Assembly: GCA_963724325.1 (NCBI GenBank) | Contig: CAVRUH010000001.1 | Span: 224,001 to 288,000, forward strand | Length of the DNA: 64,000 bases | Origin: Waddliaceae bacterium | GTDB taxonomy: Bacteria; Chlamydiota; Chlamydiia; Chlamydiales; Waddliaceae | Reading direction: 5' to 3' | Shown: positions 50,063 to 52,840 of the stretch, in pieces | Position numbering within the stretch: the stretch's first letter is position 1 | How the letters are laid out: each line of letters begins with the position of its first letter | The notes under the pieces: model-generated | Told to the model about the DNA's origin: nothing | Seen by the model: only the letters and a program-made list of their open reading frames with translations | Database searches by the model: none | Position numbers and translations under genes: made by a program

Positions 50063-51433
50063 ATGCATTGGACAAAATGGGGTAGGTTGCACATGTTATC
50101 GAAATTTTGGGAACATCCTCTAAAGATGTTATTTTTAAGTTTGTTTTTGATGATGAGTTCCATCGATCAATCATATTCTGCATCTGAAGAATACGAGCTC
50201 CATCCTAAAGAAATCATGTCTTTTCATATAGATTATAAAGAATCTATATCCGAACTGTGTCTTATAGGGGCAAAATACGACACAGATAAATCACCACAAC
50301 AAATAAATATGACAAACAATAGCCGTTGTCACCCATATACTTTATTTTACAACTCCCTATTCAAAGACAAAAGAGATCACAAACTTGTGATTGCAGAATT
50401 AGGAATACTTAATGGCGCTTCACTATTAATGTGGAAAGAGTATTTTCCCCATGCGAAGTTGTATGGATTTGAATCTAACATTCAATTTATTAATGCATTT
50501 GAAAATAATTTCGATAGAGATCGAATTACATTAGCTCACATGGACATACAAGATGAATCGAGCATTGTACATGCACTACATTCAACTGGAGAACAATACG
50601 ATCTAATTATCGAAAATACCACTCATCTGCTTGAAGATCAAATAAGGATTATCGAAAATGTCTATTCATATTTGAAACCTGGTGGAATCCTTATCATTGA
50701 AGGTATATCTAAGAATTTTCAAGAGCAAGATTATATTGATAGACTGAGTCCAATCTTAGGAACATTTCAAGACTATTATTTTATTTCGATGGATCACAAA
50801 AATAGAAATTCGTCCGGGTGGGATGACAATAAACTGTTTGTGTTAGTAAAAGGAGGAGCTAATCCGATCTTCCAAAACAAGAGAAAAATAACAATCATTA
50901 CTCCTTCCATGCGTCCTGGCAATCTAATTGCAGTAAAAAATTCTATAAATTTTGATTACGTGGATGAATGGATTATTGTTTATGACGGAAGTAAAATCTT
51001 AGAAAATCCTCATCTGTTTACAGATGAAGAAAATGGAAAAATTAAAGAGTATATTCACGAGAGCAAAGGGATGAGCGGAAATCCTCAAAGAAATTATGCC
51101 CTGGATCTTGTTCAAAATGAAGACACATATCTGTATTTTGTCGATGACGATAATGTGATACACAAAGATTTATATAAACTCTTAGATATTATAGATGATG
51201 GCAAAATATACACTTTTGATCAAGAAAACAGATTAAAGGGAAATGTCATTGCATGGGCTAAAATAGACACAGCTATGATTTTAATCGATTTCAAGCTATG
51301 TAGAAACCAACGATGGATTCTGGACAGATACGGAGCAGATTTTTTTTACTTTAATGCATGCTATAAACAAAACAAGGATAAGTGGATTTATGTCAATAAT
51401 GTACTGTGCACCTACAATAAATTGCCTAGATAA
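50063..51433 (+). CDS. class I SAM methyltransferase fused to a GT-A (GT43-like) glycosyltransferase, N-terminal signal
   Basis: KYDTDK, IAELGILNGASL, YLKPGGILIIE; then ITIITPS, WIIVYD, QRNYAL, YFVDDDN, IDTAM. Confidence 0.75.
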   Translation: MHWTKWGRLHMLSKFWEHPLKMLFLSLFLMMSSIDQSYSASEEYELHPKEIMSFHIDYKESISELCLIGAKYDTDKSPQQINMTNNSRCHPYTLFYNSLFKDKRDHKLVIAELGILNGASLLMWKEYFPHAKLYGFESNIQFINAFENNFDRDRITLAHMDIQDESSIVHALHSTGEQYDLIIENTTHLLEDQIRIIENVYSYLKPGGILIIEGISKNFQEQDYIDRLSPILGTFQDYYFISMDHKNRNSSGWDDNKLFVLVKGGANPIFQNKRKITIITPSMRPGNLIAVKNSINFDYVDEWIIVYDGSKILENPHLFTDEENGKIKEYIHESKGMSGNPQRNYALDLVQNEDTYLYFVDDDNVIHKDLYKLLDIIDDGKIYTFDQENRLKGNVIAWAKIDTAMILIDFKLCRNQRWILDRYGADFFYFNACYKQNKDKWIYVNNVLCTYNKLPR

Positions 51434-51452
51434 GCACATCACTCTGGCGAGA

Positions 51453-52199
51453 ATGCATCTCTTTATTTACAGTCTTTTTTTTGTTTTCCTATCTTTTCAT
51501 CCATTGTCAGCTGAAGAACCTTTATTATTAGATCGCTTCCATATTTGTACTGTGGCCTCATTTGAAAACGATTATTTAAATAAACTCAATACATCATGCA
51601 ACATGCATCATATAGATTTAGAGATTATTGGATTAGATTTACCTTATTATGGTAATGGAACAAAACTTCTTCGTTTGAGTGAATACTTAAGCGGACTCGA
51701 TGACGATGATATCGTCATGTTTGTAGATGCCTTCGACGTCCTAATCATTGTTGATAAAGAAGTGATTTTACAGAAATTTTTAGATATGAATGTCCCATTT
51801 GTCATGTCTGCAGAAAAAAATTGTTTTCCTTTTGCTAATCTTGCTGATCAATATCCTGAAACCACCAGTCTATTTAAATTTATCAATTCAGGGGCTTTTA
51901 TTGGTTATGTGCGGAACCTAAAAACATGGTTAAAGGACCTTAGCCCTTTCGATTTACAAAAAAGCGATCAAGGTCAAATTACAATTCACTACTTAAGCAA
52001 TCCAGAGGCATTTGCTATAGATTATTACTGCGAGTTGTTTTTGTCGTTATATCATGTAAAGGAGCAAGAAATTGCAATTGATGATGACAATGGAGTGGTA
52101 CATTGTTTAATAACGGGTTCTGAGCCGTGTGCGATTCATGCAAATGGAAAATCTTTTTATCTTTGGAACATCATCTATGAAAAATTGGTAGTCAATTGA
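51453..52199 (+). CDS. PLOD/LH3-type glycosyltransferase domain protein, N-terminal signal
   Basis: CTVAS, GTKL, IVMFVDAFDV, SAEKNCFP, FINSGAFIG, SDQ, IHANG; start likely MHLFIY. Confidence 0.8.
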   Translation: MHLFIYSLFFVFLSFHPLSAEEPLLLDRFHICTVASFENDYLNKLNTSCNMHHIDLEIIGLDLPYYGNGTKLLRLSEYLSGLDDDDIVMFVDAFDVLIIVDKEVILQKFLDMNVPFVMSAEKNCFPFANLADQYPETTSLFKFINSGAFIGYVRNLKTWLKDLSPFDLQKSDQGQITIHYLSNPEAFAIDYYCELFLSLYHVKEQEIAIDDDNGVVHCLITGSEPCAIHANGKSFYLWNIIYEKLVVN

Positions 52200-52840
52200 A
52201 TCTATACTTAAGAATATTCTACATCATATCTTTAATTATTTCGCACAATATAGATGCGCTTGATGACAAAATTAAACAAGATATTAAACATCTAGTAGCA
52301 AATAATCCAAATCAGCTTGTAGAAGTCGAATACACATTAATAGTTGAGAAACTAATAAATAAATCGCCTTGTAATATGCTTGTCTTTGGCGTAGGTCGGG
52401 ATAGTAAGCTGTGGATAGAAAGTAACTTCCTCGGTCAAACTATCTTTCTGGAAGACAATAAAACCTGGTTTAATCGTATATGCTCGGAAATTCCGCAAAT
52501 AAATGCCTGCCTTGTACAGTACAACACAAAAAGAAAAGATTGGCAATATTGGCTTGAGGAATCTAAGGCGCAAGAACTCTTGCTAGATCTTCCATCAGAA
52601 ATAATGGAGACTAAGTGGGACATTATTTTTGTTGATGGGCCAGAGGGATGGTCTGATGATAAACCCGGTAGGATGAAAAGTATTTTTACAGCAGCATATC
52701 TCGCTTATAAAAGTGAAAACTGTCATGTCTTTGTACATGATTGCGATCGTCCTGTTGAGGCAATTTATAGCTCAATGTTTTTAATGGATGAAAATTTAGA
52801 GTGCACTCTATGCCGCCTTCGCCACTATTTTATTCCTTGA
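52196..52840 (+). CDS. DUF579 (GXM/IRX15-like) polysaccharide O-methyltransferase
   Basis: SPCNMLVFGVG, TIFLED, LP..WDIIFVDGPEG..PGRMKSIFTA, VFVHDCDRPVE, LRHY. Confidence 0.82.
   Translation: MNLYLRIFYIISLIISHNIDALDDKIKQDIKHLVANNPNQLVEVEYTLIVEKLINKSPCNMLVFGVGRDSKLWIESNFLGQTIFLEDNKTWFNRICSEIPQINACLVQYNTKRKDWQYWLEESKAQELLLDLPSEIMETKWDIIFVDGPEGWSDDKPGRMKSIFTAAYLAYKSENCHVFVHDCDRPVEAIYSSMFLMDENLECTLCRLRHYFIP

Follow-up and report, generated by a model that had tools for sequence, protein, structure and literature searches.

Three co-directional genes for glycan-modifying enzymes, each with an export-type leader, lie side by side in a strain-specific island of this Waddliaceae genome, and the trio is a composite of two modules. 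One is a recurrent pair (genes 2 and 3), encoding a PLOD/R699-type glycosyltransferase (GT) and a DUF579 methyltransferase (MTase); the other is a separately travelling gene 1, encoding a fused MTase-GT with relatives in giant viruses. We regard it as an evenly balanced question whether the three proteins are exported via Sec and, with host-derived donors, add and O-methylate sugars beyond the cytoplasm, and whether the island was assembled horizontally. Positions refer to the window, the whole stretch of 64,000 nucleotides that was analysed.

Table 1 Features of the locus and its neighbours
Feature	Position	Strand	Description
BNR_4 beta-propeller gene	48589..50020	+	leader-bearing; upstream, in the same strain-specific stretch; no counterpart in G195
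Gene 1	50093..51433	+	446 aa from ATG 50093 (most likely start); leader, MycE-like sugar O-methyltransferase half and compact, putatively inverting GT-A half
Gene 1 leader	50093..50182	+	about 29-30 aa; two Lys, core LFLSLFLMM, SYS/A before acidic SEE
Gene 1 methyltransferase half	50219..50851	+	model residues ~43-253; MycE/SpnK-like by Foldseek and profile
Gene 1 GT-A half	50876..51430	+	about 185 aa; TP, WIIVYD, QRNYAL, YFVDDDN and IDTAM motifs
Gene 2	51453..52199	+	248 aa (most likely start); leader and PLOD/R699-type GT-A glycosyltransferase
Gene 3	52196..52840	+	214 aa, TTG start; leader and DUF579 (IRX15/GXM, TIGR01627) methyltransferase
Downstream membrane protein	52982..53656	+	224 aa; two-lobed hydrophobic segment

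Gene content and gene starts

The list of open reading frames (ORFs) of the window gives the three genes as 50063-51433, 51354-52199 and 52196-52840. The first frame is open from 50063, and a Shine-Dalgarno-like GGTAGG motif lies 6 nt before ATG 50093 while none precedes ATG 50063; the former is the most likely start of gene 1 as read from the DNA. Gene 2 most likely starts 19 nt past the gene 1 stop, at ATG 51453, so the 80-nt overlap of genes 1 and 2 in the ORF list is probably an artefact. The TTG of gene 3 overlaps the gene 2 stop by 4 nt, and the same start is used in a gene call of the protein database (P0121). An earlier note on this DNA had described three tightly packed genes with N-terminal leaders, which was borne out by the ORFs, the starts and a leader heuristic. 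The domain content that it gave (MTase plus GT-A, GT_PLOD and DUF579) was likewise recovered in Pfam and NCBIfam profile searches, and every domain found is compatible with the role in glycan building and methylation that it proposed.

The methyltransferase half of gene 1

The N-terminal half of gene 1 is homologous to the catalytic core of MycE/TylE-type enzymes by both sequence and structure. It has a class-I MTase match in Pfam (PF13847, 2.7e-6, residues 110-216). The full-length protein was modelled with a pLDDT of 89.7; Foldseek matched this half best to SpnK (8ia9) and MycE (3ssm), with E 3e-10, and all of the top ten hits were MycE or SpnK (8ia9/8iaa) chains. A profile of the gene 1 family searched against the PDB returned MycE 3ssm at 3.1e-12 and 8ia9 at 4.5e-8. 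Unlike MycE, ThnM1 and TylE, its best matches in sequence and structure, the gene 1 MTase is fused to a GT; the N-terminal auxiliary domain of MycE is absent, and the MycE Tyr208 loop is missing from the alignment.

In MycE, Asp275 and Asp304 bind Mg2+ and His278 is the active-site His, according to the part of PMC9275233 available to us. All three positions are kept in the family consensus of gene 1, with Asp in 117 of 118 sequences at the first site and 110 of 126 at the second. Gene 1 itself keeps the His position (IIENTTH) and has Asn in place of Asp275 and Gly in place of Asp304, each found in gene 1 only (1/118 and 1/126). The His is lost in all three of its closest relatives, whose MTase:GT identity ratio is 0.65-0.81 versus about 1.0 elsewhere. 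To judge from these alignments, the MTase half appears to be visibly decaying in the three relatives, and that of the present genome may be weak or dead. Another leader-bearing MycE-like MTase, with its motifs intact, is encoded in the present genome.

The glycosyltransferase half of gene 1

The motif order of the GT half (TP..WIIVYD..QRNYAL..YFVDDDN..IDTAM), pointed out in the earlier note, is present in gene 1 and nearly invariant in the alignments of the family, whose GT domain has 1220 representatives. The model of the domain (pLDDT 94.9) has a predicted GT-A fold with a DDD metal motif, and DDDN is at least 90% invariant in the alignments. The assignment as GT43-like was not supported. 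Residues 297-381 give a weak GT-A match in Pfam; GT2 (PF00535) scores 21.7 bits, narrowly below its cut-off of 23.3, and GT43 (PF03360) reaches 16.2 bits (E 0.0096, profile positions 39-97 of 207) against a cut-off of 27. Among the 150 best representatives, 46 match GT43 weakly (E<=0.01; best 3e-6) and 49 match GT2 weakly (E<=0.01), some of the latter possibly through a second GT2 domain in multidomain proteins. Structural comparison ties the two families as well: Foldseek placed GlcAT-P first (2.5e-7, TM 0.71), followed by GlcAT-S (3.0e-7), WrtF (3.6e-7) and RmlT (6.8e-7), and the VIA Z scores were 17.9 for TarS and WrtF, 17.1 for RmlT and 16.8 for GlcAT-P, SpsA and TarP. Gene 1 shares the GT-A fold and the DDD motif with these GT43 (GlcAT-P/S), GT2 (TarS, RmlT, SpsA, TarP) and WrtF enzymes, at 11-18% identity, and its domain is unusually small beside theirs. 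Since GT2 enzymes share the DDD motif, it is not diagnostic of GT43.

The tie with GT2 enzymes also fits an explanation that we consider distinctly unlikely, namely that this is an ordinary envelope-polysaccharide (LOS/EPS-type) locus, in which the N-terminal segments are anchors and the catalytic domains work in the cytoplasm on lipid-linked or soluble precursors.

Relationship of gene 1 to giant viruses

The family of gene 1, with 810 homologs found, is abundant in giant viruses, and relatives on verified Nucleocytoviricota contigs are 52-59% identical to it. The giant-virus kinship proposed earlier stands for gene 1 and also for gene 2, whose best solved relative is mimivirus R699. The opposite outcome named there, kinship with ordinary bacterial GT2 and MTase proteins, applies to the wider relatives of gene 1 only: in the atlas, used as a lead only, gene 1 adjoins, after a viral cluster, bacterial GT2+Methyltransf_24 fusions (score 0.90-0.92), a placement that also speaks for an envelope-polysaccharide locus. 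In the gene 1 tree, which has a midpoint root only, the branch separating viral from chlamydial copies received an SH-aLRT of 78.

The chlorovirus PBCV-1 offers a comparable enzyme. In the part of PMC9614988 available to us, A064R is described as having two rhamnosyltransferase domains and a further one that methylates the newly added sugar, at O-2 of the terminal L-rhamnose. Gene 1 resembles A064R (with A061L) in fusing GT and SAM MTase domains, and its family is mainly giant-viral, as A064R is. It differs in having the MTase first and only one GT domain, and chlamydial copies, unlike A064R, carry an export leader; A064R gave no detectable sequence match in the PDB searches with gene 1. The same part of the review mentions neither chlamydia nor GT43.

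Genes 2 and 3

Gene 2 matched GT_PLOD (PF25342) with 120.8 bits (7.3e-35; cut-off 27) and retains every invariant residue of the family. Its best hits in the PDB were R699 (3.6e-17) and LH3 (4e-15). The residue roles of R699, including the DxxD metal site and the uridine-stacking aromatic, are given in the part of PMC12279948 available to us. Aligned with R699, gene 2 retains D83/D86 (D125-x-x-D128 in the numbering of the 281-aa ORF), Y85 (as Phe), E114, N218 and the conserved His before N218, so that the DxxD, aromatic, Glu, His and Asn of R699 and the human LH3/PLOD3 GT domain all recur in it. It differs from R699 in a Phe at W118 and a single Asp kept of the D162/D163 pair. Unlike R699 and LH3, it is a single 248-aa domain with a leader and has neither an accessory nor a lysyl-hydroxylase domain. 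No collagen-like gene was seen among the ORFs and Pfam hits of its neighbourhood.

Gene 3 passed the thresholds of PF21729 (IRX15/IRX15L/GXM; 2.8e-44, 151.4 bits, cut-off 27.8) and TIGR01627 (156.2 bits, cut-off 149.85), as the plant DUF579 proteins do, and keeps 18 of 18 invariant columns in a 33-sequence alignment. The plant proteins are the GXM glucuronoxylan 4-O-methyltransferases, AGM and IRX15, and the earlier note had seen an echo of the plant xylan toolkit and a eukaryote-like origin in this locus. For DUF579 this was not upheld, because the closest kin are bacterial and phage proteins: the nearest relatives come from chlamydiae, other bacteria and phages (40-77% identity), the named closest ones outside chlamydiae are bacterial, the nearest atlas clusters are phage and bacterial, and no plant protein appears by name in the best 120 of 498 matches. 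DUF579 proteins with 40-50% identity to gene 3 are in fact frequent among bacteria and phages. Two further features set gene 3 apart from its plant counterparts, a leader predicted to be a bacterial-type signal peptide and the pairing or fusion with a PLOD-type GT rather than with xylan synthases. To our knowledge, viral and animal R699/LH3-type enzymes do not pair with DUF579. A PDB sequence search with gene 3 gave nothing meaningful. A Tepidisphaeraceae genome (L014) has leaderless DUF579 next to TylF and GT2 genes, and a contig labelled as viral (L051) has it within a cluster of GT4 and GT2 genes; such copies among glycan genes again lend some weight to an envelope-polysaccharide locus.

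Conservation of the pair and of the trio

Co-occurrence was counted in 401 genomes of the phylum, the present genome (G000) included. Of these, 6 have gene 3, 23 have GT_PLOD and 7 have full-length gene 1, and all three genes occur together in the present genome only (1/401). Genes 2 and 3 are adjacent in 5/5 other chlamydial genomes that have gene 3; the gene 2 stop and gene 3 start overlap both here and in G239, and two proteins (P0158, P0166) are in-frame GT_PLOD-DUF579 fusions. By tblastn, gene 1 is absent from every locus of the pair. What the earlier note had called one system is therefore conserved as far as the pair goes, the triple never being syntenic elsewhere, and a joint three-gene pathway is not supported by conservation. 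A complex prediction for mature gene 2 and gene 3 products (score 0.00, mark 0.32) is evidence neither way. The pairing gives a bacterial context for both PLOD/R699-type GTs and DUF579, and may be of use in working out what chemistry DUF579 performs other than on plant xylan.

In G239 the pair stands in an operon with a leader-bearing Fic-domain gene. The Fic-domain family is typical of protein-modifying effectors, and the enzymes could accordingly be host-directed effectors, leaving the bacterium by Sec plus type II secretion or by release into the inclusion and modifying host proteins or glycans, which we hold to be unlikely. The closest characterised relatives of gene 2, the collagen Gal-Hyl glucosyltransferases R699 and LH3, do modify proteins; gene 1 orthologs have an F-box protein and a large DUF3638 protein in their vicinity; neighbours of the trio code for membrane proteins whose hydrophobic segment is two-lobed, and the island is strain-specific, as many effector loci are. 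Yet a host target, a secretion chaperone and a type III signal are not evident, and DUF579 and the gene 1 family belong elsewhere to glycan-building clusters of other bacteria and viruses (L051, L014, L057), which point to polysaccharide or glycoconjugate synthesis.

Leaders and predicted export

Leaders were called with an explicit in-house rule based on charge in the n-region, an uncharged hydrophobic core and small residues at -3/-1. It was positive for the N-termini of genes 1, 2 and 3, and for 4/127 internal control segments. For gene 1, leaders were found in 7/7 genome-anchored chlamydial orthologs versus 0/5 viral homologs, and in 40/127 rows of the whole family. Gene 2 orthologs have a clear leader in 5 of the 10 genomes examined, and relatives of gene 3 in 37/44 close versus 14/80 distant cases. 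The latter is a stricter count, which replaced a looser one (63/124) inflated by the first beta-strand of the domain itself. By this heuristic, export-type leaders are present on all three proteins and conserved in chlamydial orthologs, in agreement with the earlier note, which had named a lack of signal peptides as evidence against its proposal.

In all three N-termini, basic residues (Lys/Arg) precede the hydrophobic core and acidic ones (Asp/Glu) follow it, a layout that fits a catalytic domain facing outward, and we infer export via Sec. An envelope-polysaccharide locus with cytoplasmic catalytic domains is at odds with this layout and with the small -3/-1 residues, which suggest cleavage. 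It is also at odds with the gain of leaders specifically in chlamydial copies, versus leaderless viral and bacterial kin, and with an island in which the ORFs and Pfam hits reveal no flippase, polymerase, priming transferase or sugar-nucleotide gene. That the same hits show no acceptor, flippase, lipid-carrier enzyme or sugar-nucleotide synthesis gene nearby also counts against the exported-enzyme reading.

A strain-specific island

Compared with G195, a genome of the same genus, synteny holds at 81% identity until about 48262 and then breaks; the cassette is absent there. GC content is 0.328 at 50-52 kb versus 0.37-0.41 in the flanks. No tRNA or flanking direct repeats marking an integration site were found around the island. 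The BNR_4 gene upstream seems to be divided between two frames (48589-49683 and 49778-50020), and a PDB sequence search with it gave nothing meaningful. Because this gene looks broken, the island may be decaying. That the whole was acquired horizontally, is now decaying and has little or no function left is nevertheless very unlikely in our estimate. The low GC, the absence from G195, the split BNR_4 gene, an in-frame TAA in the gene 1 ortholog of G306, and the MTase half of gene 1, with both predicted Mg2+ ligands lost and faster divergence in the nearest relatives, would all agree with decay. Against it, the three frames are intact with compact operon spacing, the invariant residues of the GT half, GT_PLOD and DUF579 are all kept, and the GT half is 75-78% identical within the gene 1 sub-clade.

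Between gene 3 and its downstream neighbour there is no terminator; a terminator-like site was found at 53691-53714. The 224-aa downstream gene was considered as an operon member and rejected: the stretch before it (52953-53249) and its terminator both recur together with a paralog at a distance of 2 kb (55094-56323), so it probably forms its own transcription unit. A promoter scan showed no excess over chance (16 sites; 20.8 expected). In a search of sequencing runs, small word shares (<=0.13) appeared in soil and indoor metagenome contigs, and no RNA run was among those listed.

Proposed mechanism and significance

Bacterial nucleotide-sugar glycosyltransferases and SAM methyltransferases are textbook cytoplasmic enzymes, and enzymes dependent on these donors are not expected to function in the bacterial periplasm. 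If the three proteins do act as exported sugar-adding and O-methylating enzymes, their site of action would be the periplasm, the inclusion lumen or the host-facing surface. Their donors, nucleotide sugars and SAM, would have to be host-derived, because the enzymes would lie outside the bacterial cytoplasm; intracellular chlamydiae already tap host metabolite pools. The GT-A half of gene 1 would be metal-dependent through its DDD motif, with a nucleotide sugar as donor, and is expected to be inverting because it resembles GT2/GT43 enzymes, while the MycE-like half, in the family at large, would O-methylate a neighbouring sugar hydroxyl. Gene 2, binding Mn2+ through its DxxD, would attach a second sugar, and gene 3, as its obligate partner, would O-methylate the product. 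As the acceptor we slightly favour a bacterial glycoprotein or glycan, either secreted or on the surface, over a host molecule.

More tentatively, and with more doubt than belief, environmental chlamydiae might in general carry out Leloir-type glycosylation and methylate sugars with SAM beyond their own cytoplasm, having fitted leaders onto cytoplasmic enzymes of giant viruses, phages and bacteria, fed them from host pools and exchanged the genes with giant viruses and one another in shared protist hosts. The island would then be a snapshot, with a virus-type MTase-GT whose MTase is dying beside an incoming pair of GT and DUF579.

If exported action is real, obligate intracellular bacteria would carry out nucleotide-sugar and SAM chemistry in a host-supplied compartment, and this would matter for our view of how the surface or vacuole of chlamydiae is decorated. 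The gene 1 family itself offers a clear-cut and testable example of genes that giant viruses and chlamydiae share and whose products have changed their cellular address. Our literature search found no paper on DUF579 in chlamydia and, in the parts of the sources available, none on glycosyltransferase transfer between giant viruses and chlamydiae or on leader-bearing chlamydial glycosyltransferases.

Glycan enzymes with leaders recur in several further genomes of chlamydiae, which speaks for exported action. The present genome (84.6% complete) yielded no GT90 (PF05686). In G354, the gene 1 ortholog lies amid two GT4 genes, two GT90 genes, a GT34 fragment and three methyltransferase genes (one FkbM-type), at least five of which start with hydrophobic leaders, and in G390 and G172 leader-bearing Methyltransf_24 genes adjoin it.

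Gene content and layout of the cassette

The genome that holds the window (G000) comprises 2.37 Mb in 11 contigs. As the earlier note had described, it carries a cassette of three genes encoding a methyltransferase-glycosyltransferase fusion, a PLOD-type glycosyltransferase and a DUF579 protein, and the ORF list together with Pfam and NCBIfam matches confirmed this observation. Gene 1 matches a class-I methyltransferase and, weakly, a GT-A domain in Pfam, gene 2 matches GT_PLOD (7.3e-35), and gene 3 matches IRX15/GXM in Pfam (2.8e-44) and TIGR01627 in NCBIfam (156.2 bits vs a cut-off of 149.85). 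All three proteins carry N-terminal signal-peptide-like leaders, and the catalytic motifs are conserved in the GT half of gene 1, in GT_PLOD and in DUF579. A genome-wide search found one member of each of the three families in this genome, and the named relatives among the database matches belong to Parachlamydiaceae, Criblamydia and "Chlamydiae bacterium".

Coordinates of the cassette, its surroundings and the loci compared with it
Feature	Sequence	Coordinates	Strand	Remark
Cassette ORFs (n = 3)	window	50063-52840		co-directional; basis, ORF list
Gene 1, likely start	window	50093		ATG; GGTAGG motif 6 nt upstream
Gene 2, likely start	window	51453		ATG; gap of 19 nt from gene 1 stop
Gene 3, start	window	52196		TTG; 4-nt overlap with gene 2 stop
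Stretch without match in G195	window	~48.3-53.7 kb		
PF07100 and MR_MLE genes	window	46805-48291	minus	
BNR_4 beta-propeller gene	window	48589-50020		directly upstream of cassette
Paralogous membrane proteins	window	52982-53656; 55094-56323		
Duplicated upstream regions	window	52953-53249; 55016-55313		81-88%
Duplicated terminators	window	53690-53721; 56653-56684		
Inverted repeat	window	56373-56534		74-nt arms, 14 nt apart
Stand-alone MycE-like gene	L062 (G000:C1, ~599.3-600.1 kb)	1255-1983	minus	242 aa
Gene 1 ortholog and glycosylation cluster	L057 (G354:C25)	~2000-12000		
Fic, GT_PLOD and DUF579 operon	L015 (G239:C9)	8081-10184		
Glycan gene cluster with DUF579	L051 (IMG/VR contig)	463-11870		one strand

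The cassette is a composite

Across 401 genomes of the phylum, G000 included, the gene 3 family (PF21729) occurred in 6 genomes, none of them among the six other genomes from the family to which the window genome belongs, GT_PLOD (PF25342) occurred in 23, and full-length gene 1 in 7 (G000, G390, G133, G241, G172, G354 and G306, the last with one in-frame TAA). All three genes were found together only in G000 (1/401), and the proposal of a single conserved three-gene system was therefore not borne out. Neither gene 2 nor gene 3 was detected in the six other gene 1 carriers, while gene 2 adjoins gene 3 in all five other gene 3 genomes (cut by a contig end at two of these loci and convergent at one), and gene 1 is absent from those five loci. 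In addition, the GT_PLOD and DUF579 domains are fused in frame in two database proteins (P0158 and P0166), and no leader separates them. Given that genes 2 and 3 are paired or fused elsewhere, that gene 1 is absent there and that, of the genomes sampled, G000 alone has the triple, the cassette is a composite, in which a conserved glycosyltransferase-methyltransferase pair lies beside an independently mobile methyltransferase-glycosyltransferase fusion. When GT_PLOD forms were surveyed in 10 genomes, the protein was short with a clear leader in five, short with an ambiguous start in one, short without a leader in one, and the C-terminal domain of a 720-865-aa protein in three.

Comparison with the same-genus genome G195 gave 81% identity up to ~48262; G195 has no counterpart to the stretch that holds the cassette, and to the right of this stretch genes match at scattered places. 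The GC content is 0.328 at 50-52 kb vs 0.37-0.41 around, and no tRNA or flanking repeats marking an integration site were found around this island.

Gene 1 and its giant-virus relatives

The search for gene 1 returned 810 homologs at E ≤ 0.001. Among the 120 listed, proteins of 427-482 aa have an n-h-c leader before a conserved "SFxIDYK", and proteins of ~405 aa begin directly at this motif without a leader. A scan of IMG/VR found 8 loci, of which 5 are almost full length, at 52-59% identity. The neighbours of gene 1 on two viral loci, namely minor capsid protein P8, DUF5764 and a fused topoisomerase II on L043, and MutS with HNH, Rpb2 and Rpb5 on L044, are by their predicted products giant-virus hallmarks; these two are the only viral-labelled loci with diagnostic neighbours, the remainder being viral by label alone. 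The giant-virus kinship suggested earlier was thus borne out by both identity and Nucleocytoviricota-type neighbours. As a lead, the nearest cluster in the protein-cluster atlas (score 0.98) is 98% viral and belongs to Nucleocytoviricota, followed by bacterial GT2+Methyltransf_24 fusions (0.90-0.92).

A quick IQ-TREE phylogeny of 127 rows, from which 4 rows identical to locus ORFs had been dropped, resolved two groups. Of the 43 rows in the first group, 7 are the chlamydial genome rows (7/7), 30 are metagenome rows with a leader, one is a viral row on a long branch, and in 5 no leader could be detected, at least 2 of these being truncated gene calls. The second group, of 84 rows, holds 79 leaderless rows together with 4/5 viral rows. 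The branch dividing them is weak (SH-aLRT 78), and with a midpoint root only, either direction of transfer is compatible with the tree. The leader heuristic, which scores an uncharged hydrophobic core and small residues at -3/-1, was positive in 40/127 rows (7/7 chlamydial, 0/5 viral), vs 4/127 for internal control segments.

The best matches of the N-terminal half of gene 1 are two sugar O-methyltransferases, MycE and the entry 8ia9, which is labelled SpnK (Foldseek 3e-10; family profile against PDB 3.1e-12). In MycE, Asp275 and Asp304 are the ligands of the Mg2+ to which the sugar 2'- and 3'-OH are bound, and His278 belongs to the conserved active site (PMC9275233). In the profile-against-PDB alignment these Asp/His sites map to "IIEDTTH" and "IIED" of the gene 1 family, where the window protein reads "IIENTTH" and "IIEG". 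It alone has Asn at the first Asp site (1/118) and Gly at the second (1/126, with Asp in 110/126 and Asn in 12/126). Both aspartates are retained, for instance, in the G172 ortholog. Its three closest relatives (the G133 copy, P0019 and P0058) have all lost the His, and in two of them Lys replaces the SAM-motif Glu, while all motifs of the GT half are intact. The ratio of methyltransferase to GT identity is 0.65-0.81 for these relatives vs 0.96-1.18 between ordinary members, with the window protein intermediate (0.88-1.04). Given the predicted Mg2+-site losses, the skewed ratios and the intact GT motifs, the methyltransferase half is probably weakened or inactive in the window genome, and the GT half appears to be under constraint.

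Elsewhere in the same genome, a stand-alone MycE-like methyltransferase has its own leader and intact IIDDGGH and IIED motifs. Some match to gene 1 was present in 57/401 genomes; most of the domain-only matches cover the methyltransferase region, which suggests that MycE-like methyltransferases of ~240-280 aa are widespread in the phylum.

The full-length model of gene 1 is confident (pLDDT 89.7), and its C-terminal ~185 aa folded alone gave a GT-A domain (pLDDT 94.9). Pfam scores of this half stay below the cut-offs for GT2 (21.7 vs 23.3 bits) and GT43 (16.2 vs 27 bits). Foldseek ranked human GT43 GlcAT-P and GlcAT-S first (2.5e-7, TM 0.71) with WrtF, AvpGT, RmlT and TarS within a factor of ~8, and an independent all-against-all aligner gave Z 17.9 for TarS and WrtF, 17.1 for RmlT and 16.8 for SpsA, TarP, GlcAT-P and CgT, so that GT43 and GT2-type matches of the predicted structure tie. 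A profile of the GT domain alone, derived from the window sequence and ten genome-anchored loci and searched against 1.84 billion sequences, retrieved 1220 representatives at E ≤ 0.001, of which 714 reached E ≤ 1e-10; many are stand-alone proteins of ~185 aa. Because the best 150 match GT2 (49) and GT43 (46, best 3e-6) weakly in nearly even numbers, and the structures tie, GT43 membership is not established; the motif block that had led to the label "GT43-like" is genuinely shared across the family and is similar to that of GT43.

Genes 2 and 3

The best solved relative of gene 2 is mimivirus R699 (3.6e-17), followed by human LH3 (4e-15). R699 is a collagen galactosylhydroxylysyl glucosyltransferase. 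Its Mn2+ ligands are D83/D86, Y85 makes the stacking contact with uridine, and the residues important for catalysis include E114, W118, D162/D163 and N218 (PMC12279948). Gene 2 keeps DxxD, E114, N218 and the His preceding N218, with Phe for Y85; unlike R699, it has Phe for W118 and one residue left of the acidic pair D162/D163.

In an alignment of 33 DUF579 sequences, gene 3 has the conserved residue at 18/18 invariant columns, and its profile matched 498 proteins at E ≤ 1e-5. Among the best 120 of these, the named matches are all bacterial (Criblamydia, Thermoactinomyces, a cyanobacterium, Anaerolineales, Dadabacteria, Pyrinomonadaceae and Patescibacteria), with no plant protein among them; the nearest atlas clusters, again as leads, comprise DUF579 proteins of phages, Pseudomonadota and Bacteroidota. 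The plant link once drawn from DUF579 is accordingly unsupported. Leaders occur in 37/44 close relatives of gene 3 vs 14/80 distant ones, and the 7 leaderless close relatives include truncated calls and one fusion.

Gene context in other genomes

In G354, the gene 1 ortholog lies in a large glycosylation cluster with two GT4 genes, two GT90 genes, a fragment of a GT34 gene and three methyltransferase genes, one of the FkbM type. Hydrophobic leaders are present at the start of at least 5 of these. Both GT90 and GT34 have mostly been described as families of luminal enzymes in eukaryotes. Leader-bearing Methyltransf_24 genes flank the ortholog in G390 and G172, and in G239 a leader-bearing Fic-domain gene, GT_PLOD and DUF579 form an overlapping three-gene operon. 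Predicted nucleotide-sugar transferases and methyltransferases with leaders thus recur in environmental chlamydiae. Directly downstream of the G239 operon lies an AbiEii toxin-family gene. A NodZ-like gene lies nearby in G305, and DUF579 adjoins TylF and GT2 genes in a Tepidisphaeraceae genome. On L051, viral by label, the cluster encodes GT4, GT2, GT4, a nucleotide-diphospho-sugar transferase, DUF579, a GT29 sialyltransferase-like protein, an HpcH aldolase and methyltransferases.

Proposed role of the cassette

We propose that the three proteins would be exported by Sec, that the GT half of gene 1 and gene 2 would each transfer one sugar in a metal-dependent manner, and that gene 3 would O-methylate the product. 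Chlamydiae import nucleotides and SAM, and in the Chlamydia trachomatis inclusion secreted glycogen enzymes use host UDP-glucose; on this basis, the donors may be drawn from host-derived pools. In other genomes the methyltransferase half of gene 1 may also methylate the product. Both methylations are proposed by analogy with chlorovirus A064R, which O-methylates rhamnose (PMC9614988).

A literature search covering the main text of open-access papers found none on DUF579 in chlamydiae. PMC3417536 does not deal with leader-bearing chlamydial glycosyltransferases of this kind, and a giant-virus glycan review contains neither "chlamydia" nor "GT43". Judged by sequence, the cassette represents known kinds of enzyme at an unusual cellular address. 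What stands of the interpretation in the earlier note is export, as read from the leaders, and kinship with giant viruses, and what falls away is the single conserved system, GT43 membership and the plant link.

Neighbouring elements

The BNR_4 gene bears a leader, lies inside the stretch absent from G195 and is apparently split into two frames (364 aa and 80 aa, ~95 nt apart), being either a frameshifted pseudogene or the product of a sequencing error. On its other side, a gene of the Anabaena sensory rhodopsin transducer family (PF07100, 7.3e-52) and an MR_MLE gene of the enolase superfamily overlap at the stop of the latter, and this pair is inside the stretch syntenic with G195. Right of the cassette, the two paralogous membrane proteins are 69% identical over their N-terminal 87 aa. 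This part includes a hydrophobic segment with two lobes, which recalls the inclusion-membrane proteins of chlamydiae. The second paralog contains ~8 tandem 90-nt (30-aa) acidic Thr/Ser/Lys-rich repeats, and between its gene and a convergent histidine-kinase gene sits the inverted repeat, whose arms are 81% complementary.
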